This document shows positions 2,404 through 45,025 of a stretch of 45,135 bases of DNA, piece by piece; the stretch's first letter is position 1, and each line of letters begins with the position of its first letter. The notes below the pieces were generated by a model, which did not search any database, was not told where the DNA came from, and saw only the letters and a program-made list of their open reading frames with translations. Position numbers and translations under genes: made by a program. The DNA lies in the sequence record PQ178821.1; one strand, given 5' to 3'. This stretch comes from Escherichia phage BMA1.

Positions 2404-2645
2404 TTATCTCCGTCCTGTTGTTTGTTATCATCGGGGCTTCGTCCCTGTTTAACGTGTATGCGCCGTCCGTCCGGGATGGCTTTTTCGGTAGGGTGCTGTA
2501 TCTGCTAACAGCAATGACCTGTATTGTCGGGCTGTTGCAAACAGGAGACGTATCTGATACCACCTGGACCGCGTTAATCTGGCTGTTTGCATTGCGCACC
2601 CTGCGTAATGCTGTTTTGAATGGGGTAAAACATGCGATTCAGTGA
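2400..2645 (+). CDS. membrane protein, holin/antiholin candidate (81 aa)
   Basis: Two hydrophobic segments; ATGA overlap with previous gene; overlaps endolysin start. Confidence 0.45.
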   Translation: MIISVLLFVIIGASSLFNVYAPSVRDGFFGRVLYLLTAMTCIVGLLQTGDVSDTTWTALIWLFALRTLRNAVLNGVKHAIQ

Positions 2646-3123
2646 TAACGGTCTACGATTTACGGCAGCATGGGAGGCTTTCAGCCCGGTGCCGTATTTC
2701 GCGACCAAGAAAGAGCAGGCCCGCGGCCTGTACACCTGGGGCTATGGGCATACTGGCACTAACCCGCCTCGAAGCATTACCCGCGCGGAAGCGCTGGAGC
2801 TACTCAAGCGAGATGTGGCGTATGCTGAAAACTGGGTGAACAAGTACGCACACCCGAGCATCAATCAGGCGCAATTCGACGCGCTGGTGGATCTGGTCAT
2901 CAATGCCGGTCCTGGTCCGATCATGCCGGACGACGTCGCCGGTGACTTCGACGATGCGGTCCGACTGGGAGACTGGGCGAAGGTCCGTGCTACTCTGCCA
3001 CAGTTCCGCAAGCAAGGCGGGGAAGTGCTGAAGGGGTTAGTCCGTCGATCAATCGGCAGACAGGCGTTGTTTGATGGTAAGCAGTGGGACGTTGCCGAGC
3101 GAATCGGTCGTAACGCGGTATAA
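2632..3123 (+). CDS. endolysin, T4-type lysozyme-like (163 aa)
   Basis: N-terminal E...YTWGYGHTG segment resembling the lysozyme catalytic region; position after holin candidates. Confidence 0.8.
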   Translation: MRFSDNGLRFTAAWEAFSPVPYFATKKEQARGLYTWGYGHTGTNPPRSITRAEALELLKRDVAYAENWVNKYAHPSINQAQFDALVDLVINAGPGPIMPDDVAGDFDDAVRLGDWAKVRATLPQFRKQGGEVLKGLVRRSIGRQALFDGKQWDVAERIGRNAV

Positions 3124-3307: not shown

Positions 3308-3314
3308 ACAATCA

Positions 3315-3339
3315 AGCCCGGTATTATCCGGGCTTTTTA
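3315..3339 (+). terminator. rho-independent terminator candidate
   Basis: AAGCCCGG ... CCGGGCTT stem plus TTTTT. Confidence 0.5.
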
Positions 3340-3399
3340 TTGCCCACCTCAATAAGTCCCATGATATATTGTCCCCGGACCCATAATCAGGAAGTAATT

Positions 3400-4542
3400 A
3401 TGCACCCGCAAACTAAAATCACAGACGAGCAATTGATTGCTGAATTACAATCCGGCGCTACATCGAAAGATATTGCGAAGAAATACGGGATTGCCCTACG
3501 CAATGTTTATATGCGGAAAGCCCGCCTATCGAAAAAAGGCATTGGACACGGCAACGATGCCGTAATCCGCAAGCGCGTTGCCGATGGCTTTGGGGTTAAG
3601 CGCGTATCGGCCCTGGTGCGCGGCAATGGTGAAGAGGTCATGTCGTGGGTCATCACTGAGCAGGACAAAGAGCGCCAACTCGAAGCCATGCGCGCTGTTG
3701 TCGAGGGTATGAACAGCGAAATCACACCGGCAGCGCCAGTAAAAGCCCCGCCAGTACCGATCCAGGCGCTCGACTTGCTCAACCTGTACACCGTGTCAGA
3801 CTTCCACCTGGGCATGTTGGCATGGGGCGAGGAGACTGGCGAAGATTGGGATATGGCGATCGCCGAAGACCTGTTCTACCGCTGGTTTGTCGAAGCCTTC
3901 GCACGCGCCCCGGACGCAGGCACTGCCGTAATTAATATCCTCGGTGATATGGCCCACTTTGATAGCCTCGATGCTGTCACTCCGGCAAGTGGTCACATAT
4001 TGGACGCCGACACCCGCTACCAGAAACTGGTCCGATACATGATTCGCATGGTGCGAAACGTCGTCGAACTGGCGCTGCAAAAACACCACAAAGTCAAACT
4101 GCTAATCGTCCAGGGAAATCATGACGAGTCGGGTATGATTTGGCTTGCGGAAATGTTCAATACTCTGTATGAGAACGAGCCGCGCGTCGATGTGGATACG
4201 TCGCCGGATGTCTACAAAATGGTGCAGCACGGTAAAACCACGCTATTCTTCCACCACGGGCACAAAGCGCGCTTCGATGCTATCGAAACCGTCATGATTT
4301 CTAAATTCAGACAGGCTTTCGGGTCCAGCGAGTACAGCTACGCGCATGTAGGCCACTTGCACCACCAGAAGATTGTTGAATCCCGCAACATGATTGTTGA
4401 GCAGCACCGGACCCTAGCCGCGAAGGACGCATATGCCAGTCGTGGCGGTTGGATGTCCGGTCGCAGTGCCAACGTAATCACCTACAGCGCCAACTACGGC
4501 GAAGTAGCGCGCTTAACCATTAGCCCGGAAATGTTGAAATGA
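3400..4542 (+). CDS. HTH domain fused to calcineurin-like metallophosphoesterase (380 aa from ATG 3400)
   Basis: N-terminal helix-turn-helix-like segment; DFHLG, GDMAHFD, GNHD, HHGH, GHLHH motifs in the order typical of metallophosphoesterases; AGGAAG RBS before ATG 3400. Confidence 0.6.
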   Translation: MHPQTKITDEQLIAELQSGATSKDIAKKYGIALRNVYMRKARLSKKGIGHGNDAVIRKRVADGFGVKRVSALVRGNGEEVMSWVITEQDKERQLEAMRAVVEGMNSEITPAAPVKAPPVPIQALDLLNLYTVSDFHLGMLAWGEETGEDWDMAIAEDLFYRWFVEAFARAPDAGTAVINILGDMAHFDSLDAVTPASGHILDADTRYQKLVRYMIRMVRNVVELALQKHHKVKLLIVQGNHDESGMIWLAEMFNTLYENEPRVDVDTSPDVYKMVQHGKTTLFFHHGHKARFDAIETVMISKFRQAFGSSEYSYAHVGHLHHQKIVESRNMIVEQHRTLAAKDAYASRGGWMSGRSANVITYSANYGEVARLTISPEMLK

Positions 4543-4751
4543 TCAGACAAGTATTCATGAGCACGCAGGCGGACCGCCTGAAGGAACTACGCAAGCAACT
4601 CGAAGGCTTACGCCGATTCGAGCGAACGGCAGCGGCAATCGGCATGTCAATCAGTGAGCGGATCGAGATACTATCGCAAATACGCTACACAGAAGGCGCT
4701 ATAAGCGAAGTAGAAAGCATGTTAACCCGATACTACGGTCGCGCCGTTTAA
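4539..4751 (+). CDS. hypothetical protein (70 aa)
   Basis: ATGA overlap with upstream gene. Confidence 0.45.
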   Translation: MIRQVFMSTQADRLKELRKQLEGLRRFERTAAAIGMSISERIEILSQIRYTEGAISEVESMLTRYYGRAV

Positions 4752-4758
4752 CCCTCCT

Positions 4759-4784
4759 AGCCCGCCGATTTGGTGGGCTTTTTT
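4759..4784 (+). terminator. rho-independent terminator candidate
   Basis: AGCCCGCC / GGTGGGCT stem followed by TTTTTT. Confidence 0.5.
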
Positions 4785-4846
4785 GTGCCTGTTATAATCC
4801 CCTTAGATGGCAGGGCCGTCTCCTATGTTGCCGATGGTCGGCGCAT

Positions 4847-5419
4847 ATGCACAAAAGGGCTTATATCATGGCAGAAATTAAAGTTAAAGGCCGTCGCGCT
4901 AAACTGGACGGACGAGTAGCAGTTACCCCGCGCCGTAAACCAGGCGAGCAAACCGAGCATACCAATCTCGGACCTGAAATCGAGTACGGAAAGCGCCGTA
5001 AAGGCGGCAAATGTGGACGCCCTACTGACTACCGATCCGTTTACTGCGACCAGCTTCGCCGCTATTTTGCCGACGCCGACGCCTGGCAGGTAAACTACTC
5101 CGATAAAGGCGCTGCGCAAGTAATCCCCCGCAACAAAATGCCAACCTTCGGTCGATTTGCCGCGGAAATCGGTGTGGGAGTAGCTTGCCTGTATCGCTGG
5201 GCGCGCGCACATGAGGAGTTCGCCGAGGCGATGGCTGACGCGATGGAGTTGCAGAAAACCTTCCTGATGGAAGCTGGCGGCGTGACCATCGCGGCGGGCT
5301 TCGCCACGTTCCTGCTTAAAGCCAACCACGGCGTCCGCGACGATACCCCACTGGATGACGACGAAGATGATAACGGCGACGTCGTTGTCGAACCTACCGG
5401 CAAAGGCCAGGGCGAATAA
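4847..5419 (+). CDS. terminase small subunit candidate (190 aa; start may be ATG 4868)
   Basis: HTH-like segment FGRFAAEIGVGVACLYRW, acidic C-terminus, directly upstream of and overlapping the large terminase gene. Confidence 0.55.
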   Translation: MHKRAYIMAEIKVKGRRAKLDGRVAVTPRRKPGEQTEHTNLGPEIEYGKRRKGGKCGRPTDYRSVYCDQLRRYFADADAWQVNYSDKGAAQVIPRNKMPTFGRFAAEIGVGVACLYRWARAHEEFAEAMADAMELQKTFLMEAGGVTIAAGFATFLLKANHGVRDDTPLDDDEDDNGDVVVEPTGKGQGE

Positions 5420-9744: not shown

Positions 9745-9856
9745 CCCGTCTGCAGACCCCGACGAGGATTTGATGATTGACGTGAAAAATATGGAATGCG
9801 GGGCGAAGCTAAGGGCGCAGGTGCTGGAGTTGCAGCAAATAATTAAGGGGCCGTAA
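9617..9856 (+). CDS. o-spanin (Rz1-like outer-membrane lipoprotein, 79 aa)
   Basis: Signal peptide with lipobox LSAC, Pro-rich mature part; starts inside the Rz-like ORF in a different frame and extends beyond it. Confidence 0.6.
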   Translation: MLNMLRALTALIVVLMLSACGSSNVPLMPLTESALRPPCKFDSPSADPDEDLMIDVKNMECGAKLRAQVLELQQIIKGP

Positions 9857-9868
9857 TGGCCCCTTTTT
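9847..9868. terminator. bidirectional terminator candidate between convergent genes
   Basis: GGGGCC gtaat GGCCCC stem with T-run on + side; sits between + spanin genes and - strand cassette. Confidence 0.6.
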
Positions 9869-15862: not shown

Positions 15863-15892
15863 TTTGGTCGCTTAAATAGCGGGTGTTAATAT

Positions 15893-15915
15893 GGGGCCGT
15901 ACTGGCCCCTTTTTT
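15893..15915 (+). terminator. rho-independent terminator
   Basis: GGGGCC gtact GGCCCC followed by TTTTTT. Confidence 0.6.
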
Positions 15916-16610: not shown

Positions 16611-16929
16611 AAGCGGGACAGGCGGGACGTCCCGTTTTGTCCCGCCTCTGTAAAACCACATATCTAATCACTTTTATTGCATAAACTCAAAGCGGGACAG
16701 GCGGGACGTCCCGTTTTGTCACACCCTGTAAATGTGCATACCTATGCAGATTTCGTGCATAAACCAAACGGGACAAAAAGCGGGACAAACACGAGGCGGG
16801 ACAAAGCGGGACAGCACCCCGTCCCCGCCAGTGCTGCCGCGGTTTTTAGCCGATCGGGACAGCGGGACAGCACCCCAGTCTTTCAGACTAGACGGGGGTC
16901 AATGGCCCCCCTCGTCTGAGACTGAATAA
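16611..16929. repeat. GCGGGACA iteron array with tandem ~76-bp subunits and terminal hairpin (copy 1)
   Basis: At least 9 GCGGGACA-like units; palindromes GCGGGACGTCCCG+TTTT at 16622..16638 and 16701..16717; 3' part near-identical to 44851..45025. Confidence 0.7.
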
Positions 16930-28893: not shown

Positions 28894-28912
28894 GAGTTGA
28901 AGAAATAGGAGA

Positions 28913-28934
28913 GGGGCCGTGCGGCCCCTTTTTT
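28913..28934. terminator. bidirectional terminator between convergent operons
   Basis: GGGGCCG tg CGGCCCC stem with TTTTTT; separates + tail fiber gene and - strand block. Confidence 0.6.
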
Positions 28935-30125: not shown

Positions 30126-30147
30126 TGCAACCAACCTATTGGTTGCA
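30126..30147. promoter_or_regulatory. inverted repeat TGCAACCAA-ccta-TTGGTTGCA (operator-like palindrome)
   Basis: 9-bp arms, 4-bp spacer; overlaps stop of upstream gene and precedes start of downstream gene. Confidence 0.45.
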
Positions 30148-30606
30148 AGTGAATTTCGCAACGTTTATTGCGTAAATATTCGGGACCAAATCGCTACACG
30201 CCCGACGGATAGCTGCAATGTTCTTCGGGCAGTCTTCAATGATGACCAGTTCTGACACGTCCGCGTAGCAGACCATTTTGAACACTGCGCACGCCTTAAA
30301 CTCTGGCGGCGGGGTGTCATCCAGCATGTGGCGCATAAACAACCGGCCCGCCGGGAAGACCTCCAATTGCTCGGCGGTGGTGTCCCAACATTCTCGCTGC
30401 CGGTTTGTCAGATACGCTATCTCGAAGCCTTGCTCTTTGTACATGCGCAGCAGCGGCAGCATATCCATGTTCAGATCTTCGCGGACGTGCGCTTTGTGCC
30501 ACTTTGCCCAAAAGGTTGATTTCGTTTTTATCCCCGGCACCAGGTCGGCACGCGCATCGCTTGAACCGTTAATAACGCCATCCAAATCGCAAATCAGTAA
30601 TTTCAT
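30136..30606 (-). CDS. HAD-superfamily phosphatase-like protein (156 aa)
   Basis: N-terminal CDLDGV (HAD motif I-like), downstream YLTNR and ED segments; GAGAG RBS. Confidence 0.45.
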   Translation of the reverse strand: MKLLICDLDGVINGSSDARADLVPGIKTKSTFWAKWHKAHVREDLNMDMLPLLRMYKEQGFEIAYLTNRQRECWDTTAEQLEVFPAGRLFMRHMLDDTPPPEFKACAVFKMVCYADVSELVIIEDCPKNIAAIRRACSDLVPNIYAINVAKFTCNQ

Positions 30607-30827
30607 TTTAAACTCTCAATAAGGGTGTAACGGGCGCTTCGCGCAGTAAAGGAGTTGCACACGAAATGGCAACGCTGAGTCATGACAAGCCAACCGGTGA
30701 GGTCAAGGCCCAGGATGTATTCGGGGCGAGACGCGCGCACTACACGATTGCGTCGCGGATCAATACAGTAGTCTCTTTGCATTTGGTCTACGACCGCAGG
30801 GTCGCGGTCAACGATTAAGATATTCAA
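30603..30827 (-). CDS. small hypothetical protein (start uncertain, TTG in track)
   Basis: ORF bridging HAD-like and Dam-like genes; no clear RBS. Confidence 0.3.
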   Translation of the reverse strand: MNILIVDRDPAVVDQMQRDYCIDPRRNRVVRASRPEYILGLDLTGWLVMTQRCHFVCNSFTARSARYTLIESLK

Positions 30828-31293
30828 GGAGTTCTCCTTCGCTCATTATTTCAATTTGTGCGCTGCCAATGGGTGGCGCTTCGTCAAAGATTATCAATTG
30901 CTGGCACTTGTTATTGCTCGGACCGACTTCGCCGGTGACAGCATGTATAAATCGTATCCGCCAGTCCAGAAGAATTATCAGGTTTGCAGTCTTCCGGGCC
31001 AGCTTCGCCCACTTCGTCGACGTGTCCTGATTCAGTAGCATGACCGTCCGGCGTCCGTGCGCTGCGCACTTGACCCACGGCAGCGGGTCGGAATACGGCG
31101 GATTGCACCACTTCCACCCTTTCAACTCTGCCCAGTCCGCATCAAGCGCGCTATGTTCTGCCGTGAAGTAACGCGGTAGCAGATGATTGGCGTCGCTTGC
31201 CGCCATATCGTAACGGAATCGGAACTTACGGCGCAGCGGTTTAAATAAAGCTGGCGGCGTGCGCCAGCTATCTTTTTGCTCACTCTTCTGCAT
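30808..31293 (-). CDS. DNA N6-adenine methyltransferase, phage Dam-like (161 aa)
   Basis: WRTPP...LF N-terminus, AASDAN and NPPY (CNPPYSD) motifs. Confidence 0.8.
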   Translation of the reverse strand: MQKSEQKDSWRTPPALFKPLRRKFRFRYDMAASDANHLLPRYFTAEHSALDADWAELKGWKWCNPPYSDPLPWVKCAAHGRRTVMLLNQDTSTKWAKLARKTANLIILLDWRIRFIHAVTGEVGPSNNKCQQLIIFDEAPPIGSAQIEIMSEGELLEYLNR

Positions 31294-31744
31294 GATCTGG
31301 ATCTATCGCATACAGGGCAGTCTTTTCGCCTTTCTTCAGGATTCGCAGCAATCGCTGCGTCTCGGAGTCGCCTAAAGGGCGCGCGTCCGGGTAGAAGCTG
31401 CCGTTAGTGTTATTGCGCCACGCCACAAGCACCAGATCTTTCCGGTCGATCTTAGACTGGCGGCCTTTGGGGCGCACGTACTCCTCGGCCCGTTTGCAAT
31501 GCTCGCGCAGCGCATCGGCAGTTACGCGGTTTAGTGCAACGCTGGTTGTATATCCGGTGCGCTGCATAATCCCCATCAATTCGAAAAGCAGTTCGAAGCG
31601 CTCCTCTAACTCCTTGCGCATCTTTTCCTCTCCTTCATAGCTCGCCAGGTAGGTATCCGCCAGCGCGTTCGCCCGTTCGGCTTGCTCGCGGGCTTCGAGG
31701 CATTGCGCGGCCCAGTAATTTTTCTCTTCTTGTAAAATTTTCAT
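31280..31744 (-). CDS. hypothetical protein (154 aa)
   Basis: ORF with GGAGA RBS; charged helical sequence. Confidence 0.5.
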   Translation of the reverse strand: MKILQEEKNYWAAQCLEAREQAERANALADTYLASYEGEEKMRKELEERFELLFELMGIMQRTGYTTSVALNRVTADALREHCKRAEEYVRPKGRQSKIDRKDLVLVAWRNNTNGSFYPDARPLGDSETQRLLRILKKGEKTALYAIDPDHAEE

Positions 31745-32841: not shown

Positions 32842-34262
32842 TTGCGCGCCTTTTTAGCTTTCATGTATTCCATCAAGTCGTCCTGAATATCTCGCTTACT
32901 GTCGCGACGCTCGGCGACCAATTCGTCCAGTGTCCCGCGCGCCTGGATAATGTAGACGAATACCGGACGGGGGTGTCCTGCTTGCATCTGGCGAACCGGC
33001 CCGATACGTTCAACGATCTGCGAAAAGTGCTCAAAGTTCCAGGTATCGGAGAAGATTGCCAGGTGATGCCCGCCGTCCTGCAAGTTAAGGCCGTGGCCTG
33101 CCGATGCTGGGTGTGCAAACATGATGGGGATCTCGCCCCTGTTCCACGCTTCCATATCCTTATTGCCCTGCTTACCTTTACCCAACGCAACGCCGTGCGG
33201 AAATTTCTTCTTAAGACGTGCCAGGTCATGCTTATACTGATACGCAACGAGCAACGGCGCTCCGTTCAACTCCTCCACGATACTTTCCAGCGCGTCCAGC
33301 TTCGCGTCGTGAATCTTCACCCACTCGTCGGTCCGTTCGCCGTCTTCGTCCACCTTATACACGGCCCCGGATGCAAGCTGAAGGCACTTAATTGTCTTCG
33401 ACGCAGCGTTCGCCGCCTCCACTGTTCCGCTTTCCAGTTCGGCAAATAGCTCGCTTTCAAACTGGTCGTAAATCTTGCGGGCTTTCTTCGGCAGATCCAC
33501 AACAACCGGCGTATATATTGGCTTGTCACATCCGAAGTATTCAGCCGCGTCAACGGTGAGGGATACATCAGACAGGCGTTGTTGTATTTCTTTCTCGGAG
33601 TTCTTTAGCGGGGCGTGCTGCATAGTGAAGCTACCAGGCTTAACAGGCTTGCTAATGAACCAGCGATCGGTAAATGCCTTATAGCTACTGCCGAGGCGTT
33701 CGCCGCCGTCGACAAACCACGTCTGACCCCATAAGTCTTTCAAGCCATTTGGCGCGGGTGTGCCGGTCAGGTTAATCCAGCGCTTGACGTGCTTATGTGC
33801 GATCGCTGCCAGCGCACGGGCGCGCTTACTTCCCTGCTTACTCCTGTAGCCTTTCAGCTTAGTCGATTCATCGGCAACAACGACCGTAAAGGGCCACGCA
33901 TCGCCGTAATAGTCTACCAGCCACTCAACCACATCGTAGTTAACACAAACCACGTTAGCGTCGCTCTCCAGCGCGGCTATGCGGTCTTTTTCTGATCCTG
34001 TGCCGTCTACTACCAGCAAGGCGGGGAATCGCCATTTTTCTTGCTCCGGGGGCCACGTACCTGACGCAACGCGCAGCGGGGCCAGCACCAGTACGCGGTC
34101 CTCCAGGCTGGACAGGATACCAGTCTGGAACATTTTATTCAGCGCCCACATTGTCGCGCCGGTTTTACCGGATCCCATTGTCGCCCAGATATTACATCGC
34201 TTATGCTTGAGGATGAACGCGGTTATCAACTTCTGATATTCGCGACGTCGGAATCTTGCCAT
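32838..34262 (-). CDS. SNF2-family helicase (474 aa from ATG 34262)
   Basis: Walker A GSGKTG, DEST box, LTGTP motif, C-terminal helicase motifs. Confidence 0.8.
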   Translation of the reverse strand: MARFRRREYQKLITAFILKHKRCNIWATMGSGKTGATMWALNKMFQTGILSSLEDRVLVLAPLRVASGTWPPEQEKWRFPALLVVDGTGSEKDRIAALESDANVVCVNYDVVEWLVDYYGDAWPFTVVVADESTKLKGYRSKQGSKRARALAAIAHKHVKRWINLTGTPAPNGLKDLWGQTWFVDGGERLGSSYKAFTDRWFISKPVKPGSFTMQHAPLKNSEKEIQQRLSDVSLTVDAAEYFGCDKPIYTPVVVDLPKKARKIYDQFESELFAELESGTVEAANAASKTIKCLQLASGAVYKVDEDGERTDEWVKIHDAKLDALESIVEELNGAPLLVAYQYKHDLARLKKKFPHGVALGKGKQGNKDMEAWNRGEIPIMFAHPASAGHGLNLQDGGHHLAIFSDTWNFEHFSQIVERIGPVRQMQAGHPRPVFVYIIQARGTLDELVAERRDSKRDIQDDLMEYMKAKKARK

Positions 34263-34266
34263 ATCT

Positions 34267-34485
34267 TTATTCCGCCTTTTTCCAGACTTCTGTCTCACTG
34301 TTCCAGTTCCTTTTTGTGGCGTCGTAGTTGGTGGCGTGTCCGATGTGCACACCGGTAGCCCGGAAGCTCTTAAACTTCTGCCAGCACACCGTCAACGGCA
34401 GCGGGTAACTCATGCCAGCAATAAACCACACGCGATCGCCCGGTTTACATTCGCCCAGCTTGGTGAGCCGGTAATGTTCTTTCAT
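34267..34485 (-). CDS. hypothetical protein (72 aa)
   Basis: GGGAG RBS; preceded on the - strand by a GC hairpin with T-run. Confidence 0.45.
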   Translation of the reverse strand: MKEHYRLTKLGECKPGDRVWFIAGMSYPLPLTVCWQKFKSFRATGVHIGHATNYDATKRNWNSETEVWKKAE

Positions 34486-34496
34486 CGTCATGTCTC

Positions 34497-34521
34497 CCAA
34501 AAATGGCGGGACAAGCCCGCC
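34497..34521 (-). terminator. hairpin plus T-run on - strand (terminator/attenuator)
   Basis: GGCGGG cttgt CCCGCC followed by TTTTT on the - strand. Confidence 0.45.
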
Positions 34522-34535
34522 GTATTTATTATTTA

Positions 34536-34709
34536 TTATTTTTGTTCCGCACGGTAGCGGCGCTGCCGTTCGCGCTCTTTCTTATTGCGGCACGATTTGC
34601 ACTCGGCCCGATACCCGTCGGGGCTACGCGCCGTCTTACCGGTGTACTTGTGGAACTGGGATAGCGGTTTAACGCAACCGCAATTACTGCAGCGTTTCTC
34701 TTCAATCAT
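34536..34709 (-). CDS. small zinc-ribbon-like protein (57 aa)
   Basis: CSNCGC ... CKSCRN Cys pairs; GAGGA RBS. Confidence 0.45.
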   Translation of the reverse strand: MIEEKRCSNCGCVKPLSQFHKYTGKTARSPDGYRAECKSCRNKKERERQRRYRAEQK

Positions 34710-34768
34710 TTCTAAAATCCTCGTTAGTGCTAACCTGCTCACTATACTGTTAAGCGACCAATTCAGCA

Positions 34769-35338
34769 NACAATAAATCNCNGTCGGCTATGTTGTCGAT
34801 GACGGCCGTAATATTCAACAAGCAACTCAACCACATCGTAGTTAACACAAAACACGTTAGCGTCGCTCTCCAGCGCGGCTATGCTGTCATTTTCTGATCC
34901 TGTTCCGACTACAACCACCAAGGCGGGCACTCGCCATTATTCTTCCTCCGGGGGCNAACGGCAGCGGGTAACTCATGCCAGCAATAAACCACACGCGATC
35001 GCCCGGTTTACATTCGCCCAGCTTGGTGAGCCGGTAATGTTCTTTCATCGTCATGTCTCCCAAAAATGGCGGGACAAGCCCGCCGTATTTATTATTTATT
35101 ATTTTTGTTCCGCACGGTAGCGGCGCTGCCGTTCGCGCTCTTTCTTATTGCGGCACGATTTGCACTCGGCCCGATACCCNGTCGGGGCTACGCGCCGTCT
35201 TACCGGTGTACTTGTGGAACTGGGATAGCGGTTTAACGCAACCGCAATTACTGCAGCGTTTCTCTTCAATCATTTCTAAAATCCTCGTTAGTGCTAACCT
35301 GCTCACTATACTGTTAAGCGACCAATTCAGCAACCAAT
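34769..35338. repeat. low-quality chimeric duplicate of 33.9-34.0 kb and 34.39-34.77 kb, probable assembly artifact
   Basis: Contains ambiguous bases at 34769, 34780, 34782, 34956, 35180; near-identical copies of the 34267 and 34536 genes with scattered mismatches. Confidence 0.6.
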
Positions 35339-35592
35339 AAATCACAGTCGGCTATGTTGTCGATGACGCGAACGTCAGCACCGCGGCGGGCCATTCGCTC
35401 ATGTTCTCGCACCTGGTGCGGCTTCGGTTTTCCGCCGGGGCGCTTCACTTCGACGAACACTATTTTGCCGTTGATGATGATAATCAGATCGGGCGCACCC
35501 GCGCGCCCCTCCCATGCCACTTTACGGCAGAATCCGCCTACCTCTTTCACCCGTCGCATCAGGTGGCTTTGAATCCGGCCTTCGGGTGTCAT
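35314..35592 (-). CDS. VRR-NUC domain nuclease (92 aa)
   Basis: GAPDLIII ... VFVEVKRPGGKP...Q pattern typical of VRR-NUC. Confidence 0.7.
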   Translation of the reverse strand: MTPEGRIQSHLMRRVKEVGGFCRKVAWEGRAGAPDLIIIINGKIVFVEVKRPGGKPKPHQVREHERMARRGADVRVIDNIADCDLLVAELVA

Positions 35593-44850: not shown

Positions 44851-45025
44851 TGCATAAACTAAGCGGGACAAAAAGCGGGACAGACAAGGGGCGGGACAAA
44901 GCGGGACAGCACCCCCGTCCCGCCCCGGATGGCGCGGCCTGGCGAGGAGCGGGACAGCGGGACAGCACCCCAGTCTTTCAGACTAGACGGGGGTCAATGG
45001 CCCCCCTCGTCTGAGACTGAATAAA
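44851..45025. repeat. GCGGGACA iteron array with terminal hairpin (copy 2)
   Basis: About 85% identical to 16756..16929 overall; last ~75 bp identical, including the imperfect hairpin. Confidence 0.7.

Follow-up and report, generated by a model that had tools for sequence, protein, structure and literature searches.

A helix-turn-helix domain fused to a calcineurin-like metallophosphoesterase in a Dhillonvirus-like Escherichia phage: a candidate DNA-tethered nuclease

The gene at 3400..4542 (+ strand) of Escherichia phage BMA1 encodes a protein in which a helix-turn-helix (HTH) domain is fused to a calcineurin-like metallophosphoesterase (MPE) domain with an intact set of metal ligands. The protein belongs to phage family PHROG 704, and it may act as a stand-alone, HTH-tethered DNase in DNA breakdown or end processing, a reading that we consider an even call. 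The gene is ordinary for this group of phages and tells nothing special about the terminase.

Gene identity and transcription unit

The window (the whole stretch of DNA analysed, 45,135 bp) is the entire genome of a Dhillonvirus-like siphophage of E. coli, in circularly permuted form; its 45,135 bp were found to have no terminal redundancy. Its nucleotide identity is 90-95% to NHEP3, Bas84, Shigella phage 1b, and about 150 other records, and the order of lysis cassette, MPE gene, 70-aa ORF, and terS is syntenic in about 150 records. The features of this region are as follows:

2113-2645: holins, in the lysis cassette 5' of the MPE gene
2632-3123: endolysin, in the lysis cassette; a 55-aa ORF also lies in the region
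3314..3335, + strand (terminator-like on both strands): intrinsic terminator-like hairpin closing the lysis cassette; stem of 8 bp, 6 of them GC pairs, and then a run of T
3362..3370, + strand: candidate extended -10 element TGATATATT for the two-gene unit, a match to TGNTATAWT
3389..3394, + strand: Shine-Dalgarno sequence AGGAAG, 5 nt before ATG 3400, read directly from the sequence
3400..4542, + strand: HTH-MPE gene, 380 aa, PHROG 704, based on ORF, profile match, alignment, and AF2 model
4539..4751, + strand: 70-aa ORF whose start overlaps the MPE stop codon (ATGA); PHROG 20931, Dhillonvirus only
4759..4779, + strand: intrinsic terminator closing the two-gene unit before the terS promoter; 9-bp stem with 6 GC pairs, followed by TTTTTT
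4790-4798, + strand: promoter-like TGTTATAAT before terS, a match to TGNTATAWT
4847: start of terS

The mechanical ORF around the MPE gene spans 3340..4542 (+), extending back to TTG 3340. Judged from the AGGAAG sequence and the length of orthologues, the gene likely starts at ATG 3400, which gives a product of 380 aa; most orthologues have 376-380 aa. The in-frame upstream starts, TTG 3340 and ATG 3361, were rejected, since the terminator tail and the promoter-like element overlap them, and since they have no Shine-Dalgarno sequence and would lengthen a protein whose orthologues keep mostly to the shorter size.

The predicted protein shares 99.7% identity with a Shigella phage 1b protein annotated as a "putative calcineurin-like phosphoesterase". 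The PHROG 704 profile ("DNA repair exonuclease") matches the predicted protein over its full length (E 6.8e-161; residues 5-380 against profile positions 2-390 of 390). The gene is real, the motif and profile evidence lying far above chance, and its product is a member of PHROG 704, a family whose name is a homology-based guess. It is also a near-identical member of a catalogued phage family, with a domain content already present in public annotations; public records call it a phosphoesterase, a DNA repair exonuclease, or an HTH-domain protein. The gene is made as protein in a relative: the 380-aa EE09 orthologue was detected by mass spectrometry in lysates, alongside the terminase and lysin (PMC10673088).

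Four matches to TGNTATAWT occur in the window, as compared to 1.7 expected, and the three on the plus strand (65-73, 3362-3370, 4790-4798) are located upstream of genes. A consensus promoter scan missed the element at 3362-3370 because no -35 hexamer is present at 16-18 nt. Given terminators on both sides and this extended -10-like element, the MPE gene and the 70-aa ORF appear to form an independent transcription unit, placed between the lysis genes and the packaging genes; both the promoter of the MPE gene and the timing of its expression are putative assignments. An earlier note on this DNA had placed the gene directly upstream of the terminase genes. The terS gene is indeed found downstream, but the 70-aa ORF, the terminator at 4759-4779, and TGTTATAAT at 4790-4798 intervene before terS begins at 4847. 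The MPE gene is not mechanistically tied to the terminase; it stands in a small unit of its own with a translationally coupled ORF.

The product of the 70-aa ORF is identical in Bas84 and is a possible partner or regulator of the MPE protein. Small ORFs overlap the MPE stop codon in most lineages and are not homologous to one another. A conserved downstream partner was accordingly rejected as a candidate, the small ORFs 3' of the MPE gene in six lineages being mutually without similarity.

Domain architecture and fold

Three regions can be distinguished along the protein, all encoded on the + strand:

3421..3534, + strand: N-terminal three-helix HTH (about aa 8-45) of sigma-70 region 4 / LuxR-GerE / Fis type, from AF2 helices and Pfam matches in family members
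3577..3714, + strand: linker of a beta-hairpin (aa 64-88) and a helix (aa 90-105), with family-conserved G77 and W83, from the alignment and AF2 model
3775..4539, + strand: MPE catalytic domain (aa 126-380), from motifs, alignment, and AF2 model

The HTH-like N-terminus and the five ordered MPE motifs described in the earlier note are both present. The motifs are DFHLG (134-138), GDMAHFD (182-188), GNHD (239-242), HHGH (285-288), and GHLHH (318-322), and with them the superfamily set that ligates two metals (DxH, GD, GNH(D/E), H, GHxH) is complete. Conservation was assessed by aligning 117 relatives with 32-80% identity. Ten residues are invariant (D134, H136, G182, D183, T194, N240, H241, H286, G318, H321), and at least 90% of these relatives keep H319, H186, D188, D202, R206, and others. 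The metal ligands predicted earlier are thus kept on alignment, and H186, D188, T194, D202, and R206 are conserved residues specific to the MPE domain of this family.

Matches to general domain models are weak. Pfam Metallophos scores 20.1 bits (E 9e-4; gathering cut-off 21.5) and Metallophos_2 scores 22.4 bits (E 1.4e-4; cut-off 27), both below threshold, and a Pfam MPE match at E <= 0.01 is obtained for only 28 of the 117 family members. These scores reflect a family too divergent for the Pfam models and are not evidence against membership. The AF2 model (pLDDT 93.4, pTM 0.80) has the MPE beta-sandwich fold.

At the N-terminus, the model contains helices at aa 9-17, 22-29, and 33-44. The HTH is weak in the MPE sequence alone (Pfam GerE, E 0.025) but clear across the family, members of which match HTH_1, HTH_8, HTH_50, Sigma70_r4_2, and GerE (best E 1.5e-9). 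In the PDB, the HTHs of GerE (1fse, E 0.037), RhlR, and sigma-H give weak matches to the family profile as well. The HTH is the least conserved part of the protein; some relatives align only from about residue 80 or 121 onward.

Distribution and genomic contexts

The position of the gene, which the earlier note considered unusual, proved to be typical of the genus. The MPE gene is core to the genus, with 147 of 156 related records carrying it at the equivalent place, and the family occurs in 2,074 phage records, among them phages of Escherichia, Klebsiella, Salmonella, Vibrio, and Campylobacter, roseophages, and others. A protein set clustered at 90% identity yielded 3,652 matches at E <= 1e-3; at 50% identity there were 4,658 clusters, 1,135 of them with E < 1e-30. 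PHROG 704 orthologues in Dhillonvirus, Drexlerviridae, Guernseyvirinae, and elsewhere do not differ substantially from the window protein. Public names for the family disagree, and include exonuclease, phosphoesterase, DNA polymerase II small subunit, transcriptional regulator, and sigma-70 region 4 protein.

The genes adjoining the MPE gene vary by lineage. In Drexlerviridae, a module of MPE, holin, endolysin, and spanin is found in 508 of 522 genomes (PMC13164509); its optional inserts are either an SH3 protein gene or a polynucleotide-kinase (HAD phosphatase-type) gene together with a dNMP kinase gene. In Guernseyvirinae, tail genes surround the MPE gene, and HAD and kinase genes may or may not accompany it. 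In T7-like phages, it follows exonuclease and endonuclease, in that order, and is itself followed by HAD phosphatase, dNMP kinase, and ligase; genes for the HAD phosphatase and dNMP kinase adjoin the MPE gene in several lineages. Elsewhere the gene comes after ligase, after ThyA (with dCMP deaminase), after a MazZ-like dNTPase, or after NinG and a NusG-like gene; in one lineage its neighbour encodes a deoxyribosyltransferase. Lambdoid phages hold it in the nin region, either before a Q-like antiterminator or after NinG. These contexts, in which T7-type exo- and endonucleases, an endonuclease VII-like gene, HAD phosphatase, dNMP kinase, and ligase recur, suggest work in the breakdown of DNA, the salvage of nucleotides, and the processing of ends or branches. 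The window does not share the neighbouring dNMP kinase of other lineages, an observation that counts against a role in DNA breakdown or end processing.

An order of lysis, MPE, and terminase or portal genes also recurs, with unrelated terminase types. A terminase of lambda Nu1/GpA type lies downstream of the MPE gene at one locus (L013); at another (L021), the gene sits between TerS and TerL, beside the endonuclease VII-like gene. At two more (L063, L071), a terminase or portal gene is reached within a few genes 3' of it, and it adjoins portal at L060, L061, and in a Yersinia phage. The context common to these phages is the junction of DNA and nucleotide metabolism genes with late genes, without a specific link to the terminase.

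Comparison with known nucleases and phosphoesterases

When the profile of the catalytic domain was compared with PDB sequences, only Thermotoga Mre11/SbcD matched, at borderline E values (0.017-0.04). The alignment pairs SDWHLG and GDLLH of T. maritima Mre11/SbcD with DxHLG and GDxxH, while GHIH, paired with the family's GHxH, falls in a second, non-significant stretch. Because the MPE protein carries the Mre11-type motif variants (DxHLG, GDxxH, GNHD) and the PPP phosphatase signatures (GDxHG, GDxVDRG, GNHE) are absent, it is best read as a phosphodiesterase/nuclease and not as a protein phosphatase. The earlier note had offered a nuclease or a phosphatase of host proteins; the former, in the broader sense of a nuclease or phosphodiesterase, is favoured by these motifs and by the borderline PDB match, whereas the latter is disfavoured. 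The nuclease reading is modestly preferred over small-molecule phosphodiesterases, and Rv0805, GpdQ, LpxH, MJ0936, and YfcE are structurally almost as close to the model as the nucleases.

Several features separate the protein from Mre11/SbcD itself. It has no capping or DNA-binding domain (no Pfam Mre11_DNA_bind or SbcD_C match) and ends about 55 residues after motif V; instead, it has the N-terminal module of HTH and beta-hairpin, and a large family-specific insert follows motif II. The partner Rad50/SbcC is also missing, no ABC-ATPase ORF of that kind having been found in the 45-kb genome. One locus of the family (L020) encodes a genuine SbcC/SbcD-like pair besides its MPE family member; the family is thus no substitute for SbcD, nor is it redundant with it. 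The small DP1 subunit of PolD, a 3'-5' proofreading exonuclease, is likewise only a distant comparison: it is 13% identical in sequence to the MPE protein and carries an OB fold where the latter has an HTH, and the phage, the polymerase of which is of family A (PHROG 17), has no DP2 catalytic partner.

The A1 protein of phage T5 is a phage MPE with structural neighbours like those found here (double-strand-break-repair nucleases and polymerase proofreading subunits). A1 is a predicted metallophosphatase, necessary and sufficient for host chromosome degradation, and the DNA-binding protein A2 is encoded nearby (bioRxiv 10.64898/2026.04.02.716235). In T5, the MPE and DNA-binding proteins are separate, whereas the window protein would hold both functions in one chain; A1 is moreover a pre-early gene, whereas the MPE gene here lies between lysis and packaging genes. 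Homology of the MPE protein to A1 or A2 was rejected, as none was detectable by hhalign (probabilities of 17%, over 19 columns around GNHD only, and 0.8%) and the PHROGs differ (1745, 1725). The comparison is therefore one of analogy only, possibly reflecting convergence.

Proposed function and alternatives

The chemistry of the superfamily is well established: a two-metal centre activates water, and a histidine stabilises the transition state, as in Mre11. We propose that the MPE protein is a catalytically competent binuclear-metal phosphodiesterase of the Mre11/SbcD/PolD-DP1 structural class, contained in one chain. Its two-metal centre would be ligated by D134, H136, D183, N240, H286, H319, and H321, and would activate water for cleavage of a phosphodiester; H241 would be the catalytic residue stabilising the transition state, as in Mre11. 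The N-terminal HTH would hold the enzyme on nucleic acid, where, during infection, a Mn2+-dependent DNase could attack DNA at ends, nicks, hairpins, or branches and trim it back or degrade it. The breakdown products may feed nucleotide salvage, or replication and recombination intermediates may be cleaned up before headful packaging, or both. T4 gp46/47 has a comparable dual role in host DNA breakdown, and the MPE protein would be a single-chain functional analogue of T4 gp47, as well as of T5 A1 with A2. DNA as the substrate, the HTH as a DNA tether, and the physiological role are all presumptive.

Observations from phage defence bear on how far such breakdown might go. ApeA senses the deoxydinucleotides that arise when host DNA is broken down, and Dhillonviruses resist it; they are also not listed among the phages against which an m6-dAMP-sensing system protects, whereas a T1-like phage is listed. 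Both facts argue weakly against massive host DNA degradation in the genus. For this reason we consider the HTH-tethered DNase about as probable as all other readings combined, with salvage and intermediate processing both candidates for its role. The Retron-Eco7 paper reports a Dhillonvirus trigger gene. Ksap1, the trigger of KpAvs2, was considered and set aside, being a gene other than the MPE gene.

Other enzymatic activities have to be weighed. The protein could be a small-molecule phosphodiesterase or pyrophosphatase (a class III cyclic-nucleotide, nucleotide, or nucleotide-sugar hydrolase) that reshapes nucleotide pools or destroys host signals such as immune cyclic nucleotides, with the HTH-like domain put to some other use. 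The structural closeness of Rv0805 and the enzymes listed with it would fit, as would the frequency of nucleotide-pool enzymes among the neighbours (dNMP kinase, HAD phosphatase, MazZ-like dNTPase, ThyA, deoxyribosyltransferase) and the large family-specific loop (T194, D202, R206), a possible pocket for a small ligand. However, the motifs are of Mre11 type, the only sequence-level PDB matches are Mre11/SbcD, the conserved HTH argues for a nucleic-acid substrate, and the literature yielded no report of a phage MPE as an anti-signalling enzyme; we consider this activity unlikely. The recurrent grouping of MPE, HAD (PNKP phosphatase domain, Pfam PF25109), P-loop kinase, and sometimes ligase brings to mind RNA or DNA end healing, in which a 2',3'-cyclic phosphodiesterase or 3'-phosphatase would join with these other enzymes to repair the cuts of host defence nucleases, as does the MPE domain of bacterial Pnkp. 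Yet the kinase belongs to the dNMP-kinase family PHROG 139 and not to the polynucleotide kinases, and an MPE phosphatase would be redundant with the HAD 3'-phosphatase already there. In the window, moreover, no kinase or ligase homologue was found, and the only HAD gene found, a distant PHROG 415 HAD at 30136-30606, is located far from the MPE gene. End healing is accordingly quite improbable. A Ser/Thr/Tyr protein phosphatase targeting host proteins would resemble lambda NinI, a PPP-family member of the same superfamily with an equivalent nin-region position in some lambdoid relatives; in the lambda gene order, ninI occupies the place where those relatives hold the MPE gene, and in lambdoid contigs it either comes shortly before a Q-like antiterminator or follows NinG. 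With the PPP signatures absent, this is very unlikely.

Two further alternatives draw on gene position. An accessory packaging nuclease, working with the terminase to cut pac or cos sites or to clear branched concatemers, like the HNH endonucleases that aid HK97-type terminases, would account for the terminase or portal genes found within a few genes downstream in Dhillonvirus and the unrelated lineages named above, and the EE09 orthologue was present in lysates with the terminase. The wider distribution speaks against it: in the Drexlerviridae (508 of 522 genomes), the gene comes before the lysis cassette rather than the terminase; elsewhere it lies amid tail genes in Guernseyvirinae and amid class II DNA-metabolism genes in T7-like phages, and falls in the nin region before Q in lambdoid phages. 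In the window its transcription unit is a separate one that ends at a terminator 5' of terS, and genes at the end of a module adjoin terS by default. We regard a packaging function as decidedly improbable. Finally, the protein might be mainly a regulator of late-gene transcription, its HTH binding DNA and its MPE domain serving as a sensor or accessory. The resemblance of the HTH to those of sigma-70 region 4 and LuxR is consistent with this, as is the location of the gene at the early/late boundary in many phages. On the other hand, the catalytic residues are all conserved while the HTH is what varies most or drops out of the alignment, and a search for operator-like repeats near the MPE gene and late promoters in the window found none; regulation as the main role is highly improbable.

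Returning to the HTH-tethered DNase, a broader version can be advanced for the whole family. Its members may be the missing host-DNA-degrading or end-resecting nucleases of the T1-like Drexlerviridae, Dhillonvirus, and Guernseyvirinae, all small virulent siphophages, and of numerous other phages: single-chain, Rad50-independent, HTH-targeted, Mre11-like, and convergent with T5 A1/A2, with the stop-coupled small ORFs perhaps acting as lineage-specific regulators or inhibitors. We offer this version tentatively, as possible but doubtful.

Significance

Our search of the literature found neither a published function for the family nor a biochemical or genetic test of any member, and the residual interest of the gene lies in the ubiquity of a family for which no functional test was found. 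Few phage proteins without a tested function are as widespread as this family, which has 4,658 clusters at 50% identity, occurs in 508 of 522 Drexlerviridae, and is conserved in the Dhillonvirus records that were searched. If the MPE protein is a Rad50-independent, Mre11-like DNase, its annotation would be corrected, and a host-takeover or DNA-processing step would be identified in phages widely used for therapy and in defence-system screens. Such an activity would also help to explain why some phages and not others set off immune sensors that respond to DNA-breakdown products.

Neighbours of the HTH-metallophosphoesterase gene

The stop codon of the HTH-metallophosphoesterase (HTH-MPE) gene in the window is overlapped by a small ORF whose family is restricted to Dhillonvirus and whose product is probably helical:

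4539-4751 (+), 70-aa ORF, PHROG 20931, in translational coupling with the MPE gene

Most of the other lineages likewise have a small, non-homologous ORF (53-190 aa) across the MPE stop codon; such ORFs could be partners or inhibitors specific to each lineage. Two other phage loci carry further genes beside the HTH-MPE gene:

L020 6505-9905 (-), SbcC-like ATPase (714 aa) and SbcD-like MPE (345 aa), adjoining the HTH-MPE gene
L021 4492-8799, HTH-MPE gene and endonuclease VII-like gene, inserted between terminase genes

The first locus, from a metagenomic phage, holds a bona fide SbcC-like ATPase and an SbcD-like MPE, a pair that lies directly beside the HTH-MPE gene; the two MPE types thus co-exist in one phage. 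In the second, the packaging module is lambda-type, and the insertion separates the small (PHROG 57) from the large (GpA) terminase gene.

Putative transcription signals and repeats

Promoter-like elements, terminators and repeated segments were located in the window as follows:

65-73, 3362-3370 and 4790-4798 (+), extended -10-like elements TGNTATAWT, directly 5' of three transcription units
9844-9868, 15890-15914 and 28910-28934, near-identical copies of a terminator hairpin family, GGGGCCGTAATGGCCCCTTTTT, at module boundaries
33903-35368, large tandem duplication, period ~563 bp, flanked by the genes for helicase and DNA polymerase
16756-16929 and 44851-45024, two copies of a 174-nt segment, 88% identity

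Because the -10-like elements lie 5' of units, two of the three immediately after terminators, we suggest that the 'late' strand is punctuated by host sigma-70 promoters. Within the tandem duplication, 34394-34616 and 34957-35179 are identical (100%), 34614-34804 and 35178-35368 match at 97%, and 33903-34053 and 34805-34955 at 90%. The duplication could be real or an assembly artefact; the close relative NHEP3 is ~1.1 kb shorter than the window. The 174-nt copies, one upstream of the tape-measure gene and the other after the primase-helicase gene, close to the window end, could represent a regulatory region common to both sites or the remnant of a mobile element.

A doubtful ligase and a possible Ksap1 counterpart

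Two further genes were considered:

31280-31744 (-), 154-aa protein matching PHROG 10530 ('DNA ligase')
30603-30827 (-), 74-aa ORF with a TTG start, Ksap1-like in length and position

The name 'DNA ligase' is probably wrong, since the protein had no Pfam match and is, at 154 aa, much below ligase size. The 74-aa ORF is flanked by genes for a HAD 'polynucleotide kinase' phosphatase (30136-30606) and a Dam methyltransferase (30808-31293). Ksap1 is a Dhillonvirus protein that triggers the Klebsiella immune sensor Avs2 (PMC11564622). Given that the ORF has the same length and position as Ksap1, the window phage may be sensitive to KpAvs2.
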